Shown here piece after piece: positions 17,259 through 64,000 of a stretch of DNA of 64,000 nt. Origin of the DNA: Callorhinchus milii. Taxonomy: Eukaryota. Where the stretch lies: NCBI RefSeq assembly GCF_018977255.1, contig NW_024704742.1:97838001-97902000 (forward strand). The letters run 5' to 3'. The stretch's first letter is position 1; each line of letters begins with the position of its first letter. Both the position numbers and the translations under genes were made by a program. Under the pieces are notes generated by a model, which saw only the letters and a program-made list of their open reading frames with translations, did no database searches and was not told where the DNA came from.

Positions 17259-18394
17259 CTGCAAGGGAAAAAAAGAAAGGCGTTTAAACACTGACCAGAC
17301 TAGGTTTTAGCAAGTTTTTTCTCCAGTGCAGCTTATACATTATTTAGTTTCATTTGAGCCAAGTGATCAAGTGTCAATTTGTTCCTCAGGATCACCTTCC
17401 AACAAAAAAAAGCATGCAAAAGCAGCACAATACAAAATGCATCATTGTGCTTCCATGGGCTCGCTTAGCTTTGTAGAGTACGTAGTTGTAAAACCTTAAA
17501 ATAAACAAAATTACTGTAAAAAACAAACAACGAGATGTAATCATTGCCTCCACATGAGCATTTCTTTAATAATAGCAAGTGATAACGACAGTCAGGATCC
17601 AGAATGCAGCTTTGTTTGGATGCAGTGAATGGTCAGCTGCTGTTCTCCACTATTAACAGCTGCAGACAGAAGTACCTCACACAGTGAAACTCATCAAAAA
17701 GACAATTTGTTCACAAACAAAAATACTTGAACATCAGGGCTTGAAATCTGTTAAACAAAAAAGCGGATGGTAAATTTCACATGATTTTGGTAAAGTGATA
17801 CTTGTGTTCAGTTGAAAAGACAAGTTATATTCACCATACCAAGTTCAGCTTGAGTTAAATTGGTTTCATTTTGAATACGGTGTCCTCATCTGATGGAAAT
17901 TATCTAAAGCTGTGTGCTCCCAGTGGGCACTATGCCATACAGTCTGGATGGATGCAGGTTAGAATTCAGAAACTGTGCAGAGTTCAGCCGCTCATCCAGG
18001 GCAAGAGTTTGTGCGTTACAAATAGCTTCAGCTCCCCTGGGGCAAGGGAGGGGAAATCAAAATAATTAGCCATCTCCTGCTTGCAAGGTTAAGACTTTAT
18101 CCTAGGTGAGGTGTGCGATATAAATGAGTTGTGTGGCTGTCTGGCGAGACAGGATCAGACTAAACTGTAAGTTATCAACTTTCAACACAAGGAGATTTAA
18201 GCAAAATATCAAAAAAGCAACCTTTGCCTACGCTGTGGTCCAGTAGTAGGAAACAGGAGTCAGACAGAGGAAGAATCGAAGAAGAAATAACAACTTACAT
18301 TTTTATAACACAGTATTATTCAGAAACTGTCTCAAAGCACTGTACTGTCAAATGTCATGACCTTTTCTACTGTAGGCAAATGCTGCGATCATTT

Positions 18395-18751
18395 GGAGTC
18401 CTGTGGTTCAGTGGCTAGAGCACTTGCCTCGCAAGCGAGAGACCTGGGTTCGACTCTCAGCAGGATGAAATGTTGGGCAAGTTTCCTTACTCCACACGCC
18501 TCTGTTTACCTCGCAGTAAGTAGGAACCCGGTTGTTAGTCGATTGACTGATCGCTTTTCCGGGGGTAATAAGTCCTTAAAAAAAAGTCACTCAATCCACA
18601 ACTGTTTGTGGGACACTGCTGTGCGCAATTGGCTGCCGCGTTTCGTCAACATAATATATAGTCAATTCACATTACAGTATATTCTGTGACGTGCTTTGAG
18701 ACGTTTCGAAGATGTGATAAGGCATTATATCAATGCAAGGATTATTATTAT
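18395..18751 (+). mobile_element. Full-length tRNA-Ala-derived Deu-domain SINE (long form)
   Basis: tRNA-like head with A/B boxes, core TGCTGTGCGCAATTGGCTGCCGCGTT, L2-like tail and (TTA)n. Inserted into an older minus-strand SINE at ATTT. Confidence 0.88.
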
Positions 18752-20457: not shown

Positions 20458-20807
20458 AATAATAATCCCATTTGATATAGCGCTTTATCACATCTCAAAG
20501 CGCTTTACAGAATATACTGTAAGTGAATGGACTACATTTTGTGGGTGAAACGCAGCAGCCAATTGCGTACAGCAGTGACCCACAAATAATTGTGGATTAA
20601 GTGACCAATTATTTATTTTTTTTGAAAGATTATTACTGCCAGAAAAGTGATCCGCCAATTGACTAACAACCGGGTTCCTACTTACTGCCAGGTAAACAGA
20701 GCCTGTGGAGTAAGGAAACTTGCCCAACGTTTTGCCCCGTCCGGGAATCGAACCCAGGTCCTCTTGCTTGCTAGTCGAGTGCTCTAACCACTAAGCTACA
20801 AGATTCC
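20458..20807 (-). mobile_element. Full-length SINE (long form)
   Basis: Reverse complement of the 18395 family. Confidence 0.88.
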
Positions 20808-20874
20808 ACAATGAAGAGTAAGAGGAAGATGAAGTTGATGAGGAAGATGAAGGTGATGAAGATGAGAAAATTGT

Positions 20875-21319
20875 TCAGGTCTCCACCGTGTTGAGCACAG
20901 GGCTGGTGGTGCCCGGATGGGCACCGACTTGTGGTGCTTGTTCAGGTAGGGCTTGAGGACGAAGATCTTGTGGCAGCGCTTGGAGCTGAAGTGCTTGAAG
21001 GCCGAGGGCGTCAGCATGTGGGCGCGCAGGTTGGAGCGGTCAACGATAGACTTGTTGCATTGTGCGCAGCCGAAGGGCTTCTCCCCAGTGTGCGAGTGCA
21101 TGTGGCCCTGCAGCAGCCATGGCCGCCTGAAGGCTTTGCCGCAAGCCCCACATATGTGCCGCAGGTCGTGGGTCAGCAGATGCATGGCCACACCGGCATG
21201 GACACATAGACCATGCCACATTTCGGGCATTTGCGCCCCAGTTTGCCATCCAGGCTGCGGTGGGTCCGCATGTGGAGGCTCAGGTTGGACGAAATGGCAT
21301 GGGTCTTGAATACACCACA
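20875..21319 (-). pseudogene. Scratch-family (SCRT1-like) C2H2 zinc-finger pseudogene fragment
   Basis: Reads [42 protein letters not shown], then a -1 frameshift at about 21189-21193, then [88 protein letters not shown]. This follows the five-finger Scratch array. Zn ligands are lost (H->P in finger 4, C->S in finger 5) and there is no SNAG or N-terminal region. Confidence 0.9.
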
Positions 21320-21384
21320 AAGCATATCAGATGCGCAGGGAACAATCAGACAAGTATCAAAAGCAGATGGAGAGATAAACGCAT

Positions 21385-21505
21385 CGGTGGGAACACTCAG
21401 CAGGTCAGGCAGTATCTATGGAGAAAGGAAAGTGATTTGACATTTCAGGTCAAAGACCTTCATTAGTTCTGATGAAAGGTCATCAAATTGAAATGTCAAA
21501 TCACC
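21385..21505. mobile_element. Penelope-like repeat end with an internal inverted repeat
   Basis: GGGAACACTCAGCAGGTCAGGCAGTATCTATGGAGAAAGG is near-identical to 58820-58859. It is followed by a hairpin with perfect 16-bp outer arms. Confidence 0.6.
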
Positions 21506-24500
21506 TTTCTTTTATTTTTAAGTAGTTATGAATGTAATATTCCAGGACTATGTTACACATCATTACAACATCACCTTTAAGTTGTGATTATATTTGTTTA
21601 AAATATAGGACTTCCAGAAATCCAAATAGACATTATATGTCAAATCGAGGATGGAAAATGTTGTGTACTATTTGCCAAGATGAATATAACCACAAATCTA
21701 CTACAAATTTTATTTTTTCAAAATCAGAAGCTCAGCGAAAGGCCATGGCCATATAGCACAGCACATTTAGTTGGTCAGCTGGGTGTCTGACACATGCAGA
21801 AACCCATCACCACGCTTAAGTGTATCCAAACCAAGCTGAGATTTGATTCCCACCTACATATGGAAATTCCAGAGACAGATTATTGGAATGGAATGCACAC
21901 TCTCTCCCTGGAGGGACGCATCCTGCTTATCTAATTCTGGAAGGTATTAGGCGCAAGTTGGCAAGAACCAAAGCTTGGGGACCCCAGAGTGCGTGTGGAG
22001 TTATTGCTGGAGTCTAACCAGCTAAAACCGCATAGCTTGCCATTGACATTCCTATCTGGCAAGCTTTCCCACTGTTTCTCCAACTAGGAATACCCAACCC
22101 ATTAGAGCTTTGGCTTGCAGGGTTAACAGCAGCTGAGTGGGAAGACTCCCAGCACCCAGTGACTGATCTGCCCTTCCGGGTCCTGCCAATGAGCCAGGCT
22201 GTCTGTGCAATCATCAGAGTGCCCTGGAGTACTGCAGATCAAAAGCGAACTACCAATATGTAAGCGCCATTTAACATCCACCTGAACAGGCATACAGGCC
22301 TTAGTTTAGCATCTCATTCAAAGGCTAGCACCTTCAACAATGCAGCACAACCCCAGTACTACACTGGCATGTCAGCCTAAACTGTAAACCTCCTGATGTG
22401 GGGTTTGAATCCACAGGGAGAGTAAGATTAATTTCAAGTTTTCATGCCATTCGAAGGAACAATGACCATGAAATAGTTGAATCTCAGCTTGTGAGATTCA
22501 TCAATGAAGGCAATTTACCAATCCCACCAGTTATTCTGGTCTTTTTCTCCCCCCCATTCCAAACTGATCAACAAAATCTCAAATAACAATAAGGGTAAGT
22601 TCCCATTGTATTGTTGTTAAGGTGGGAAAGGTGGCAAGTCAGAAAAATATAGCATTTGGCAAGCTTCCATAGATATTTGAGAAAAGTTCAAGTCTTATAC
22701 AAATGTGAATTTTAAAAATTTGAAACTTTTGGCACAAAAGAGGAAGCCTTACATCATGGCTTTGAGCTCATAATCTGGGCTGACACTTTTTCTTCAAGAA
22801 CCTCACCCATTCTTGTCCCAGCACATCCATATCTGTGATCTTCTACCCCACTCTTCTGCTTACCCAATTCAGGCCTACCACATATCCTGCCTTCCTCCAG
22901 ATCACCATTGATGCTGGAGGCTTCAGCTACTGCACCCCTAACTTCTGCAATTCCCTTCCTCTATCCCTACATCCTGCCTTCTCTCCAACTTTAAATCCTG
23001 CCTAAAAACATACAGTACTTCTTTGTGCTTATTGTTACATCCCCACCCCACCCCCCCCCCCCTTCTGAGAATCTGGCTCCAACTTTATGAAATGCATCAA
23101 GATGTCATCCTTCTTGAAGGGCAACATAAGATTGTAGATGGTTGAAATTGTTTTGAGGGAACAGTAAATTGTCGCAGGCAGAAAAATTAGATAGCATAAA
23201 ATATTTGCTGCATTAGTTCCTCTGATTACTCAGTGTGCTACGCAATGGGGAACTCAGCCAGACTACAAAGGTTTACCAGGTTCAATCCTTTCAGCACATT
23301 GGTTGATTTCATCATGGGAGGGGATGAATAGTCAAGAGCTTCTGCATCCAATTGACATCCATCACTTCCAATTGGAAGTACATATAGATACCATTGGATT
23401 CTTCAAGGTGTGATGCTTCACCAACATAAGTTAGACAGTCTGCTAACCAATCATTGTTTCAGGTTCATGTCACTTGGGCGATGTAGAAGAGGCTGTGAGT
23501 CACCATGAATCTCACCTCAAAAGATTTAGTTTGAAAGAAACACACAGAATGTGTATTTTTCTTTCGGATTTGGTTGTAAAGCAACACAAAAGAAGGTAAG
23601 ACTCAGAATAACCAGTTGCAGGATTGCTGGCACACACACAAAAACAGAAGGTAAAGCTATATAGAATCAACTCTACATTTGGGTTGGTCAAAATCTAGCT
23701 ACAGGATAAACATGCTAATTTCACCAATAGGTGATAGTATCCAAATACCAAGAACTATTCTAAATGTGTTTTGAAGCACAAACAATTGGATCATTGTTCA
23801 GTAAATTAATAATGCTCTGGATATTACACAGGGAGTTGGTTTTGGTGTCTCCCAAACATTGATTGAATGAGCCGCTCATCATTAAGGCTGTTTTCTTAAG
23901 TGAGGTGCAGACTTTTGGACAAGACATTAAAATAGGTCATGGCTGCCGATTCAAGAGGATATTAAAGATCACATGCCATTATTCAAAAAACAGAAGAGAT
24001 TTTCTCCCAATGTCCTGGTTGACAATCCGCTAGATAAAATTGGTCATTCACATTTTGACTGTTTGTGGGATATTGCTGTGTGTAAATTGGCTGATGCATA
24101 TAAATGCAATCACTACATTTTACAATAAATCTTAAGTGCCTCAAGACTTTGCACAAAATGATAAAGTACTATATCAACTAATCAAATGCAAGGATTATTA
24201 TGAATTCATATCATTAGGCATTAAGCCTACAGAGAATGATGTACAATATAATCTAGTACTAGTTAATAATGCATCAACTTTTACTTTAGAATTCTTTGGC
24301 CTTTTTACTGAAAAAGATTGGAATGTCAAATCTACATACTGGATTTCACGCCAGTTAATACAGTATGTGTAAAGGAAGAACAAGTGCATACCAAGTTGGC
24401 AAGTAATAACAGATCTTGTGACATGAAGAATTGATCAACAGACTTTTGTTCCATGCTGGAGGCATTATCACCCCTCCCAACTTATTTAATCAAGCAGTAG

Positions 24501-34500: not shown

Positions 34501-34686
34501 CTGTCCCAAGTTGTTATATCCGTATTTAGAGGCTATCGTGTCGGCTTCCTCCACTCCTCCGTTTATCCGCACAGCCCAGTGATTCGTGTAGGTCAGGGTC
34601 CTGGAGAAGGGGAGCAAAACCCCCACAAACACCGCCAGGGAGAAGAAGACCCGATCCCGGCTCCTCCAGGTCACTGTTCCACCCAT
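34501..34686 (-). CDS. PCSK5: Proprotein convertase subtilisin/kexin type 5, coding exon 1 (signal peptide and start of prodomain)
   Basis: 62 codons: MGGTVTWRSRDRVFFSLAVFVGVLLPFSRTLTYTNHWAVRINGGVEEADTIASKYGYNNLGQ. Hydrophobic signal peptide followed by the convertase prodomain motif YTNHWAVRI..G..EA..IASKYG..N.GQ. Strong Kozak context (aacATGg). Ends at donor CAG|GTGAG, phase 0. Confidence 0.96.
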
Positions 34687-57384: not shown

Positions 57385-57600
57385 TCATCAATAATAATCC
57401 CTCAAGAAAAAAAAACATAATACAATTGGTCACTTCAATCCACAACTGTATGTGGGACACTGCTGTGTGCAATTCGTTGCCATGTTTCGCCCACAAATAT
57501 ACAGTCAATTGACTTTACAGTATATTCTGTGAAGCACTTTGAGACATCTAGAAGACGTGAAAAGTGCTATATCAAATGCAAGGATTATTATTATTGTTGT
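57385..57600 (+). mobile_element. SINE 3' half
   Basis: Core and tail of the same family. Confidence 0.8.
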
Positions 57601-58234
57601 TTGATGCAGACCTTCAAGTCGTGCTCACTGTTTGCTTATTTCTCCTTTCCAGAGAAAGTCTAACTCCTTGCAATGGTAACATTTTTGCAGGAAACAAGAT
57701 TTCCCTGAAGCTGGATTGCACCTATCGGATACTTACTATGGACCTAAAATGACAAGTGTATGCTAGGCTCCCCATAACTCTGCATTGTCTGCTGCTTGAA
57801 GACATAATAATGATAACCCTGACATTCAATATAGTGCCTTATCATATCATTGAAATGTCTCAAAGTGCCTCATAGGATTTATTTTAAAGATTGTGTTTGT
57901 AGGTGCACATACCACCTTTGGAGAGTGAGGGTAGGACAGGTGAACTGCTTCTGGTCTGGTGGCCCCTTGTTGATTCTTCTCTATTGGACATTCTTGTTTG
58001 TCAATTTGCCTTGTAATGTAAGGAGGGACAAATTATATTGATCAATAAACACATGAGCTCTTAATAATAGGGTCACATAAACCTTTCCTGCAAGGACATT
58101 CCTCTCTCACTCTTTCTTTCTGCTTCAGTACGATTGATTCCCATTCTTATTGTTCACCTACAAAATACGGTCTCTACACTTTACTTAAATCCTGTGAAGA
58201 GCTTTCAGACATCTTGACGATGTGATAAGTTGCT

Positions 58235-58655
58235 ACAACAACAACAAAATGACATTTGTGTAGCGCCTTTCACGTTGGGAGGACGTCCAAAGGTGCTGTA
58301 TGATCAGTGTTTCGGACCCGAGCTAGGGGTCGGGATAGGGGAGGGTGGAGTGCAGGGGGGAAGAAGGATGATCAAAGGCACGGTCGAGGAGAGTCTTGAG
58401 ATGGGTCTTGAAGGAGGCAAGGGAGGGGGGCGAGGCAGAGGGACTTTGGGATGGAGTTCCAGAGAGTAGGGACAAAGTGGCTGAAGGCCCACCCGCCAAT
58501 GGTGGGGTGGGCGAGGCGGGTGACATAAAGCAGGCAGAGGGAGTGGGCAGGTTGGTAGGGGACTAGGAGGTCACAGAGGTAAGGGGGAGCAAGGCCATGA
58601 AGGGCTTTGAAGGTGAGGACCAGGATCTTGAACTGTATCCTCTGTGTGATGGGAG
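58235..58655 (-). mobile_element. L2 LINE 3' fragment
   Basis: Same family as 157-712 and 62722-63830. Confidence 0.85.
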
Positions 58656-58764
58656 CTATAACAAGTATCTAATTGTTGGTGGAGCTCTTGCCATATCTAA
58701 CACACAGACAGCTTGACACATTATAGTCACATCTTCCCAAGCCAACAACAACAACTTGCTATAA

Positions 58765-58902
58765 TCAAAACGGGAAATACTGCAAATGCTGGAAATCTGA
58801 AACAAAAACAGAAGTTGCTGGGAACACTCAGCAGGTCAGGCAGTGTCTATGGAGAAAGGACAGTAAGTCAACGTTTCAGGTTCACGACCCTTCGTCAGAA
58901 CT
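58765..58902 (-). mobile_element. Penelope-like repeat end containing a hammerhead-like motif
   Basis: AAATGCTGGAAATCTGAAACAAAAACAGAAGTTGCTGGGAACACTCAGCAGGTCAGGCAGTGTCTATGGAGAAAG is partly shared with 21388-21430. It adjoins a CUGACGA...GAAAC motif on the minus strand. Confidence 0.6.
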
Positions 58903-61334
58903 AAATTATTATTAATTTATTTATTTTGAAGGGATTGATACCACGGAAAGTGATCCCCCAATTGACTAACGATCGGGTTCCTACTTACTGCTAAGTAAAC
59001 TGAAATGCTTTACACTGTCCAGCGCCTCGAGACGTCCTCCCAACATGAAAGGCGCTATACAAATGTAATCTTGCTGTTGTTGTGTTGCTGTAAACAGAGG
59101 CAAGATGGGGGCAAACAGCAGCCATCCGTGTGGTAAATTTTTATGCTTCTAAATATTTTACATTTTTTTACATTTTTCATTAATTCTGCCGATGCCTGGG
59201 AGCTATAATACTTTTCTTTGTCATTCTACACCAGCTCTTTGCAGCAAGTGAAAGCACTGTATGTCGGAGGCCAACTTTGATGAATGCCCTTTCCCCCTCC
59301 CATGATCTAGTGGGTAAACGTAGAAGAGTACAAGAACATAAAGACCAGACGTTACTGGTTTTGATGTTGCATTCATAGGTTTGAGCTGGAGTATCAGTTG
59401 GAAGGCTACTCAGGATTCTGGATTAGGAAGGGAAAATCAGCCAGAGTTTCAATGCCGATTGCTCTTCAGAGACCTCTGCTGGAAGATGTAGATGTCATTA
59501 GAGGCGAAGTTTAGCTGTGATACCCCCTCCTCTGTGGTCAAAGAGACTACATACACTCCCTGTCAAGGCTCACGCATAAATAATAGTGTGTTGGGCAAAG
59601 TACCAAATGACATCTGGCATCTATAGAACCATACCTCAGTGGAGAGGAAAAGAATCATATGCCATCAGGAGGGGAGGAGCAGAGAAATTTGGTGCAGGAA
59701 AACAACTGTTTGATGTTGCTCATTACCTCTTACTTCCAGCTCACCCGGGGTTTACACTGTCAGTTTGATGTCAACTTCAGCAGTGACAAGTTGATCATAG
59801 AACTAGGGCACTGACAAGAAAAGTATTTTAAGTAGAAGGTGAAGGCAAAAGGGAGGTGAGGAAAGGAGACAATCTCGTGGGTGGGAGCCGAATCGGAGAC
59901 AGTTCACTAAGACAGTCCGAGATAACTGTACTTCTCTTAAAATGCTTTCTGTGGATGCTGAAACTGATAACTAGTACACTCAGGGCATTGATGCAAACTT
60001 GCCATTTCACATGATAGCTAATGCTATCAAATGTTAGATCCCATATGAACTGATTTTAACTCTCCAACCTGCTATTTTTAGTGCCTTTAGTATTCACCTA
60101 CACCAGAACTTAGTAATAATAAATAATAATCCTTGGATTTGATGTAGCACCTCATCACGTCTTCGAGACATCTCAAAGCACTCCACAGAATATACTATAA
60201 AGTGAATGGATTGTATATTTTTAATAAACTTATAAACTTGCATTTATATAGTGCCCTTCACGTAGTACAACATCTTGGAGTTCTTCACAATGATGGGGTC
60301 GGATGTCGAGCAAAGGAGAAGGAAGAGAGGGAGGAGGGATGGGGGAGGTTACAATAGGTATGGTTGAAGAGGTGGTTACTTTGAGTAAAAATCTCTCTTT
60401 GTGCAAATCAAAAAAATTCAATGCAAATGTTTTTGAGATTCCGCCTTTCTGCTAAAATCAGTTTAAAACTTAATAATCAAATGTTTTAAAAGAAATGAGT
60501 GAGGTACTAATATAGAGGGATCAAATCATTGAATATTACACAACTTCAGTTATCTCCAGATGGAGCGTAGGGATGGTGGGTTCACTTTTCATATCATGCA
60601 GTCACAAAGCATAGCAGAGTAACAACTATAAAACCTCTGCAGTGTAGTGTGGAATGGAGCTGCAATTCAGGGCCCCTGTGAGGTCTATTCATTAAAGATA
60701 AACAAAAGGTTAATTCTCTTCCACAGCCCCTTTATTGGGCATGAAGGGAATCTCAGTTCCTATAAAAGCCAGCACCACTAAGCCACTATGAGAGTAATTG
60801 TCCCTTTTATGCTGCTGGGAGTAAATTAGTTGATGCAGGTTATTCTGACCCCCTTCAGTAAGCCTTGTCAATTTCTTCCTGTGTGCCTAGAAATTACTGC
60901 AAAGTAATGTTATCTCATAAATTTGCAATGTTTTTAATAATAAATTTCACAAGTCAAATTACAGATATTTTTAGGAAAGCCAGGACAAATCCACTTCACC
61001 TGGAATGCATGGAACAGCAGAAAGTCCAGTGATCCTGACGAGGCCAAAATTCTCATCGCAATAGATGGACTCTGCAAGACTTGAACTAGTCTTTCTGCTG
61101 CCTCAAAAGCATTTGACGAGCTCCTTTCACCAGCACAACATGTTTTTTTCAGATTGGAATAAAATGCAACTAGGTAAGCAGGTTCGAATCCCAGTCTGTG
61201 CTAAATTAGTTGATCTCACCCAGTGCATCAATAGGGCCACACAATTGGCTTCAATGGTTGTGGGCTGGAGATAGGAAAGTTCAGCTAGGTTTCCCATTCC
61301 TGATCTTTCTCTCTCTCCGTTTCTACCCTCAACT

Positions 61335-61850
61335 TCAGGACCACTGCTGTCCTGACAAAGTGGCTGTCAGACATCAAATCCTGGATGAGAGCCAATTTTC
61401 TCCAGTTGTATGTTGACAAGACTGAGGCCTTCCTGCTTGGCTCCCATCAGCTGAAACCTCAGGCTCTGACAGCATCACTATTCATGGATGCACTCTTCAC
61501 CTCACTGAGCCAGTGTGGAACCTTGATGTCTTGTTTAACTCTCAACTGTCTTTTAAACCCCACAGCCATGCCCTGTCCTGTTCTGTTTTCCCCCACCTCT
61601 GCAACATTGGCCACATCTGCCACTATTTCACCCCTCAGGTTGCCAAAACCTTTATCCATTACATCCAAGCTTTACTACACCAACACACTTCTTGCGGACT
61701 TCCCAACTCTTCCCTCCACACGCTGCAGATTATTCAGAACTCTGTAGCTCATGTCCTCTCCCACATTAAGCTCCATAAGCCGATCATTCCGTTCTTCACC
61801 CAGCTTCACTGGCTCCCAGAGGATCGACTTCAAGATCCTGGTCCTCATTA
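61335..61850 (+). mobile_element. L2 LINE ORF2 fragment
   Basis: Decayed WMRANFLQL.VDKTE, QIIQNSVAHVL and QLHWLP motifs. Confidence 0.85.
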
Positions 61851-62721
61851 CACTTTAGCTGCAATTTGTTGAGAAGAATGAGAGAAATGTATGATTCTTC
61901 TTTACGGTGGTACTGGTCAATACAGTTGCATTTCCGCAGCACTCCCTTATACAATGCCAAATCTTTTTAAAGCATGACCTATGTCATGCCATTTAGTGGA
62001 ATTTTTGTTATCGTGGCATGGTGCAATGTTTGTCATTGTACATGACTTCCAAGTTCTGTCACAGGAAGCCACGATAAAAACTCACTAGTTGAAAGCACTT
62101 TGTGTGCCAGAGATCTGTTAAAGATTGCATTGGCGTTAATATTTTGCTCAGCTGTAAAGGAAAAATAAATGTTTTTTTCCTCTGGACTGAGAGCCCCTGC
62201 CATAACTATTTAAAGACGGACAAAGACGGTCTCTAGGACAACACGCTTGTACACAAAAGAATTGTGATGTTGCGTTTGCTAAATGTTTTGCTTCACGGAA
62301 TAGTCAAGCACATTTCGATTGAACAATGAAAGTGGAAAGTTGGCTGACAGAAGCACGCTCGAATTATGCTACCTGATGGTGAAATTTTCCCTGGTGCTCA
62401 ATTTAATATTCAAGAGGAATAAAATTCCATTATTAAACTTTGAGATGTTGGCAATGCACATCAATGGGAACAATATATCATCAATATGCTCTAAAAATGT
62501 ATTAAAATGAACACGTGATATTTCTTTCCTTTATTCAAGGACTATAAAACGTCTGAGGCCCCAAATTTCATCTGGTCTTAGCCTGCAGCACTAGTTTGAA
62601 TAAAAATTTAAGATTGCACAGAAATACAAAAAATATTTAAATTAGGCTTAATTTGGAAGTTGATTTTTTTTTACGAACTAGCCAAAAACTGGCTTCCATA
62701 ATAATCAATCAAACCAATCAA

Positions 62722-63830
62722 ACTACATTTGTATAGCACCTTTCATGTCGGAGGACGTCCCTAGGTGCTGGACAGTCAGTGTTTCAGACCCAAGCTGGGG
62801 ATCGGGATTGGAGAGGGTGGAAGGAGGTTGACCAAAGACATGGTTGAAGAGGATGGGCTTGAGATGAGCCTTGAAGGAGGCAAGGGAAGGGGTGAGATGG
62901 AGGGACTGTGGGATGGAGTTCCAGAGGGTGGGGGCAGAGTGGTTGAAGAGGCAGGGGACGTGAAGCAGGCCAGAGCCCTCTGAGCAGAGGGAACGGGCAG
63001 GTTGGTAGGGGGTTAGGAGGTCACAGAAGTAGGGGGGAGCAAGTGAGGACCAGAATCTTGAACTGTATCCTCTGTGTGACAGGAAATCAGTGGAGTCGGG
63101 TGAGGATAAGGGTGATAGGGTCACGGAGCCTGATGCGAGAGAGGACACGGGCTGCAGAGTCCTTGATTATCTGCTGCCTATGGAGGGAGGAGTTGGGGAG
63201 ACTGACAAGCAGGGAGTTTGTGTAGTCGAGCCTGGATGTTATAAATGCACATATGAGGGTCTCAGCGGCCTGTGGAGTGAGACAGTGGCGGAGCCGGGCA
63301 ATGTTACAGAAGTGGGGAAAGGCGGAGTGGGTCATAGAATTGATGTGGGGTATGAAGGACAGTTGAGGGTCAAACAGGAGATGTAGAATGCATTCATGGA
63401 GCGAGATGCTGTCAGTGTCCGTGGTATGGAGGCGCTGACCTGAGCCAAGCAAGAGGGCCTCGGTTTTGTTGATGTTCAACTGCAGGAAGTGAGCGCTCAT
63501 CCAGGAATTGATGCCCGACAGGCAGTCTGTGAGGTGGAATTGAGGGTGGAGGCAGAGAGGTAGAGTTGGGTGTCATCTGCATACATGTGGAAGTTGACCC
63601 CATGTCTGCAGATGATGTTACCAAGGGGGAGCAGATAGATATTGAAAAGGAGAGGGACAAGGACAGAGCCCTGAGGGATGTTGCACGTGTCAGTGCGGGG
63701 GCTGGAGAAGAAGCCGTTAGTGGCGGCAAAGTGGAGAGGGTGGGCGAGGTAGGACTCGAACCAGGCAAGGGCAGGACCGTGAATGTTGAGCTGATAAAAG
63801 AGGCGATGTAGGACGATGGCATGGTCGACA
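62722..63830 (-). mobile_element. L2-clade LINE, 5'-truncated (RT C-terminal part and 3'UTR)
   Basis: Frameshifted ORF2 pieces IPQGSVLVPLLFNIYLLPLG...HMYADDTQLY, FLQLNINKTE and AFITSRLDYTNSLL. 3' tail GGACGTCCTCCGACATGAAAGGTGCTATACAAATG. Confidence 0.93.
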
Positions 63831-64000
63831 GAAGGATAAATTGAAGAATTTTTCACAATTCTGCACCAACTTAAATTAGTTTAACAGACTAAGAATAAAT
63901 GATGTTTCAGGCCTATTAATTATCCTAAGATCATAAGAGGGGTTCAAATGAAAAAGCTCTTTGGTCCATTCACATCTTCAAGACTGAGGTGGGTTAGCTA

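Follow-up and report, generated by a model that had tools for sequence, protein, structure and literature searches.

A short repeat that opens with a complete minimal hammerhead core: likely a Penelope end piece and predicted to be a dead relic

On the minus strand of the DNA analysed here (64 kb, hereafter the window), positions 58866-58902 form a minimal type I hammerhead core with all its parts present. We consider it highly probable that this core opens a solitary unit of ~138 nt, likely an end piece of a Penelope-like element, which is predicted to be a dead relic without cleavage activity. Minimal hammerheads (min-HHRs) in the pseudo-LTRs of metazoan Penelope-like elements were described in 2014 by Cervera and de la Pena (PMC4209133), and thousands of such motifs per genome are known. 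The repeat adds a cartilaginous-fish family to this class known since 2014, and the family could help with the open question of Penelope hammerhead function; the single copy in itself matters little.

Letters, parts and stem II register of the motif

Read from 58902 to 58866 on the minus strand, the motif is AGUU CUGACGA A GGGUC GUG AACCU GAAA CG UU GACU, which confirms the letters from which the initial annotation had proposed a hammerhead core on this strand. All core letters are intact, and CUGANGA, GAAA and UH are present in type I order, as in Penelope min-HHRs. The parts of the motif were placed with a structural descriptor, pairing energies and a covariance model. Stem I pairs 58902-58899 with 58869-58866 (4 bp, one G.U) and is followed by CUGACGA at 58898-58892, with C3 at 58898 and A9 at 58892. 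The A directly after A9 (58891) is left unpaired by the register energies, the descriptor and the covariance model alike. Stem II joins 58890-58887 to 58881-58878 (GGGU/ACCU) by the pairs G.U, G-C, G-C and U-A, the pair between G10.1 and 11.1 being a G.U in this copy. GAAA occupies 58877-58874 (G12 at 58877, A15.1 at 58874), and the palindrome ACGU at 58874-58871 replaces helix III, with C15.2 at 58873, G16.2 at 58872 and U16.1 at 58871. From the motif numbering, the cut is predicted after the U (H17) at 58870. The stem II register suggested earlier (A-U, G-C, G-C, G.A, U-A, with A58891 paired to U58878) proved wrong and was rejected, since it scores +0.6 kcal/mol, 2.7 kcal/mol worse than the -2.1 kcal/mol of the register with A58891 unpaired, and disagrees with both the repeat family and the covariance model. 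The unpaired-A register gives four contiguous pairs and agrees with both.

Penelope min-HHRs are described as marked by an unpaired base after A9, a G10.1-C11.1 pair and a 15.2-16.2 palindrome (PMC4209133). The motif is like those of Cervera and de la Pena in being of type I, in having CUGANGA with one unpaired base, the G10.1 pair and GAAA, and in the palindromic ACGU standing for helix III beside a short helix I. GUU triplets, and a G.U at 10.1-11.1, are also found among the examples of that paper, as here. Among the species named in the text of Fig. S3, no cartilaginous fish was found.

A strict descriptor for a hammerhead with minimal stem III (at least 4 bp in each of stems I and II, a stem III that is palindromic or missing, and UH) matched 58866-58902 alone in the window, and any match occurred in just 1/300 dinucleotide shuffles. 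Looser settings gave matches in 3/300 and, at the loosest, 15/300 shuffles. The core pattern without stems matches at 15 places in the window, where shuffled sequence gives 6.7 on average; being so common, it proves little alone. A comparison of 57500-60500 with Rfam at E<=10 returned no hammerhead family.

The repeat family

The motif stands at the head of a short high-copy repeat unit of ~138 nt (58765-58902, minus strand), the first nucleotides of which are the 5' strand of stem I. This copy carries an optional 3' extension of ~35 nt that resembles a Penelope tail (58765-58801, minus strand, boundaries approximate). Directly upstream of the unit lies a SINE-like fragment of an unrelated abundant window repeat (58905-59005, minus strand), which holds no Penelope coding sequence. 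Four public runs were aligned to 58655-58915 at 80% likeness, and the matching contig pieces numbered 7,186, 14,595, 15,894 and 2,528, which are pieces and not copy numbers. Depth was confined to 58736-58915 in the four runs, and the unique flank had no depth in any of them. These numbers leave no doubt that three organisms carry the family in great abundance, and the earlier statement that the motif belongs to a common short repeat is upheld by thousands of contig pieces in each run. A second family copy in the window has 86% identity. The downstream anchor of the unit had no match in viral, metagenome or prokaryote collections, and a family-style pattern had none in viral contigs.

The 5' boundary of the family coincides with the start of stem I. 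Among the joints listed, 10 of the 14 between opposite strands have one end at 58896-58903; apart from one in X17, the joints listed belong to X7 and X8, which are runs of other organisms, and none belongs to X1. At least one of the joints listed, seen in two runs, is a 127-nt head-to-tail repeat. The 3' ends form two clusters ~35 nt apart in all four runs, one near 58799-58804 and the other near 58765-58775, the latter less sharply placed because the window copy itself is changed at 58773-58774. In all four runs, some copies extend upstream with a shared pyrimidine-rich stretch, and this upstream sequence of the family was not found in the window.

Within the family, C occupies position 11.1 in 55-69% of the depth (four runs), and in a single loose-end line, from run X8 with an agreement of 0.52, five perfect base pairs enclose a loop of 3 nt. 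The expectation that the core would be better conserved than its flanks was not borne out at the level of copies, among the variant rows listed (all outside 58879-58902): G12 varies in 6-8% and C15.2/G16.2 in 11-15%, above most of the downstream sites listed. These three positions are CpG sites within the core, and their variation fits neutral decay after insertion. Downstream of the motif, 58790-58840 on the minus strand resembles a splice acceptor (CTGAC, a pyrimidine run and CAG). Penelope elements have an intron near their 5' end.

Relation to Penelope-like elements

A search with a degenerate stem II pattern gave one metagenome match, contig L001, in which a GIY-YIG ORF on the strand of the motif ends ~160 nt before it; the stem II match was forced by the search pattern, the adjoining ORF was not. 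Relatives of the L001 protein carry RT and GIY-YIG domains. When loci were chosen by protein alone, 7/7 had a hammerhead-like motif ~60-130 nt from the ORF match, two of them canonical, four with C at position 4 and one decayed. The stems of the ORF-linked motifs covary, with 4/7 pairs changed on both sides in five related rows, against 2/500 shuffles. In genome G001, the 3' region of one ORF-linked family gave 50 matches (40/100 candidates scored). Of these, 20 reach the ORF end, 21 have their start at the hammerhead and 20 break off ~55 nt early; several are head-to-head pairs. Moreover, a model built from five ORF-linked motifs without the window sequence ranked the window motif first, at 19.5 bits and with an E-value of 0.005 against 0.48 for the next match, the E-value being rough and the model resting on about three independent families. 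Contig L002, a weak viral match, has no hammerhead motif. The genome bins G001 (L003-L039) and G002 (L009), which are labelled bacterial, hold many eukaryotic Penelope-like copies, so their contigs are likely host (coral-like) DNA; several of these copies have CCGACGA in place of CUGACGA in the core.

No Penelope coding remnant was found by Pfam in 134 reading frames of at least 30 aa near the copies (a set that leaves out 180 further frames), by tblastn of the window with the L001 protein, or by a 74-sequence Penelope profile in 858 six-frame segments of the window. Nor did the window unit show DNA homology to the ORF-linked loci outside the core. With neither an ORF in the window nor such homology, the family is linked to an ORF by architecture only. 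The adjacency to Penelope ORFs that the initial annotation had made a check was not found in the window and is seen, by analogy, in the same layout of the ORF-linked family. The accompanying claim of a Penelope end keeps the part that rests on a min-HHR of the Penelope kind and on insertion hallmarks, while no Penelope ORF attached to the family was found in the window. Taken together, we regard the repeat as likely an end piece (pseudo-LTR derivative) of a Penelope-like element.

The insertion hallmarks are those reported for endonuclease-bearing Penelope elements, namely inverted truncated partners, partial tandems and an optional tail of 30-40 bp (PMC8557442, PMC3846280, PMC11167929). Inverted 5'-truncated partners are present at the family level and in a pair at 21.4 kb in the window, whereas the copy at 58765-58902 is single. 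The two 3'-end clusters match the optional tail, with approximate boundaries. Likewise, most genomic motifs in the account of Cervera and de la Pena are solo and some form opposite-strand pairs (PMC4209133), which is also true of the window family; unlike their elements, the window copy is decayed and its family is known here without an attached ORF. A close parallel with coding sequence is a Neptune-like family (L003-L008), whose hammerhead differs little from that given for Neptune of Acropora digitifera in Fig. S3 of the same paper. It shares with the window family the short copies from stem I, the head-to-head pairs and the two 3' ends, and its hammerhead lies shortly past the GIY-YIG ORF; it differs in a tail of ~55 nt rather than ~35 nt and in several copies with C at position 4.

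In an intact element, as the literature describes it, min-HHRs would lie within the flanking pseudo-LTRs and be inactive as monomers, with weak cleavage when two copies pair via the ACGU palindrome or when the element's protein is present. Indeed, published monomers showed no cleavage and dimers low cleavage (PMC4209133). In Poseidon of Anolis carolinensis, the hammerhead is likewise near the element end, and Frangieh et al. (2024, PMC11167929) report that two internal RT start sites define an optional tail, that uncleaved RNA is the main substrate, that the motif was cleaved only with the protein and that insertion did not need cleavage. Poseidon differs in that its ORF starts within stem II, whereas no ORF follows the window motif, and in that its activity was measured, whereas the window motif is known from its sequence. 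By this route, the RT/GIY-YIG protein would have reverse-transcribed just the last ~100-140 nt of an RNA that had not been cleaved and placed the product here, and the inserted copy would then have decayed neutrally. The copies span the cut site, which implies that the template RNA was uncleaved, and together with their start at stem I this argues that cleavage is not part of insertion.

We also put forward, tentatively and as the less probable case, that Penelope transcripts begin exactly at stem I and that the stubs are cDNAs primed at an internal RT start and extended to the 5' end of uncleaved RNA. Immediately ahead of stem I, the ORF-linked family has a TATA box and, at a distance of 31 nt, an initiator-like motif. 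In L004 (1999-2062), a CCAAT box is accompanied by a TATA box (66) and an initiator-like motif (95), with the core at 105, a placement by which transcription would begin right ahead of stem I. In addition, the short copies of this family start at the hammerhead (21/50 matches), a boundary that the window family shares. That pseudo-LTRs can contain TATA and initiator motifs has been reported before (PMC3846280). If this reading is true, the stubs would map transcription and RT start sites genome-wide, and ribozyme cleavage would not be used in vivo for the insertions.

Among the alternatives to a Penelope end piece, the one that survives best, and still an unlikely one, takes the ~138-nt unit for a non-autonomous mini-element, SINE-like or a monomeric retrozyme, which would be transcribed in its own right and mobilised in trans by Penelope enzymes. 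It would suit the sharp, recurrent 5' boundary at stem I, the very high abundance and the 127-nt head-to-tail joint, as well as the retrozymes of Penelope origin reported by a preprint in one chondrichthyan genome (bioRxiv 10.64898/2026.07.22.740005). The animal non-LTR retrozymes of that preprint are also short, hammerhead-bearing and Penelope-related, but they are defined by tandem arrays, whereas the window copy is a single one, outside any tandem array at its locus, and shorter than their 363-bp chondrichthyan average. Moreover, the copies that continue upstream with shared sequence in all four runs speak against a self-contained unit, as do the short copies of the ORF-linked family that occur beside ORF-attached ones (20/50 reaching the ORF end). 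Among the papers listed by our literature search, none was on a chondrichthyan Penelope hammerhead, and searching by motif sequence strings found no papers; the family may yet be included in supplementary data of Craig 2021, of Frangieh 2024 or of the 2026 preprint.

It is considerably less probable again that the repeat is the end of another class of retroelement (L2/CR1 or a SINE) with a hammerhead by coincidence. No ORF attached to the window family was found and its neighbours are L2-like and SINE-like, which would be in keeping with such an origin, but these neighbouring repeats recur in the window without the motif, the depth drops at both ends of the unit, and head-to-head pairs with an optional tail are features described for Penelope elements (PMC8557442, PMC3846280).

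State of the copy and its surroundings

The copy at 58765-58902 is solitary, the nearest family copies being 37 kb away and decayed, so it has no dimer partner nearby. It differs from the majority of run X1 at at least nine places within 58772-58878 and is ~8% off. Folded alone, it is predicted to favour a competing hairpin (probability about 0.65) over stem II (0.28), and this hairpin would pair the CUGAC core with the stem II loop and bury the core. The majority base at 58878 raises the predicted stem II to 0.88, and with the flanks included neither stem II register forms; secondary-structure programs do not model hammerhead cores. No target-site duplication of at least 6 nt was found at the copy. 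These data predict that the copy does not cut. The core was rightly called intact in its letters, but an intact core does not make an active copy, because this one is solitary, ~8% off the majority and predicted to misfold.

For these reasons we hold it highly improbable that the copy is kept as a working ribozyme affecting transcription upstream of the convertase gene. The intact core letters and the strand shared with the gene are what such a role would lead one to expect, but an intact core is expected in some of thousands of copies, and the motif lies 24 kb upstream of the gene, without a partner and with a predicted misfold. Least credible of all is a chance arrangement of letters, for which the commonness of the core pattern alone, the missing Rfam match and a fold z-score of -0.16 could be cited, and which is already largely refuted by a family majority that improves stem II, by the 1/300 shuffles and by the match of the independent model to the window motif.

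The first coding exon of the proprotein convertase lies at 34501-34686 on the minus strand (Pfam S8 pro-domain, E 1.6e-7). The gene is putatively PCSK5, the name used in the initial annotation. The location given there, on the same strand as PCSK5 and ~24 kb upstream, is right as to strand and distance (24.2 kb); no link between repeat and gene emerged. Because the repeat is so abundant, its position relative to PCSK5 carries no weight. The contigs of run X17, a run only guessed to be RNA, contained nothing on the motif locus.

The pair at 21388-21510 consists of two head-to-head copies that both start at stem I. One arm (21388-21467, minus strand) is a decayed family copy with mutated core and palindrome, and the other (21463-21510, plus strand) is a decayed short inverted partner that keeps CUGAUGA, has a damaged stem II and palindrome and matches the model at a non-significant E of 0.77. 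In stem II (A-U in place of G-C at 10.1-11.1) and in stem I, the pair suggests A-U pairs where the main family has G-C and G.U, and from these two decayed copies it is perhaps a second subfamily. A frameshifted Scratch-1-like zinc-finger pseudogene fragment (20799-21330, minus strand) lies in the first intron of the convertase gene, with Callorhinchus milii scratch 1 as its best match (75% over 55% of the frame). It begins ~60 nt past the 3' end of the inverted Penelope-type pair, which may have carried it in or may merely adjoin it. The window also holds many L2-like 3' fragments (156-714, 58235-58654, 61304-63880 and others) and an abundant SINE-like repeat of ~360 nt, for example at 18389-18749.
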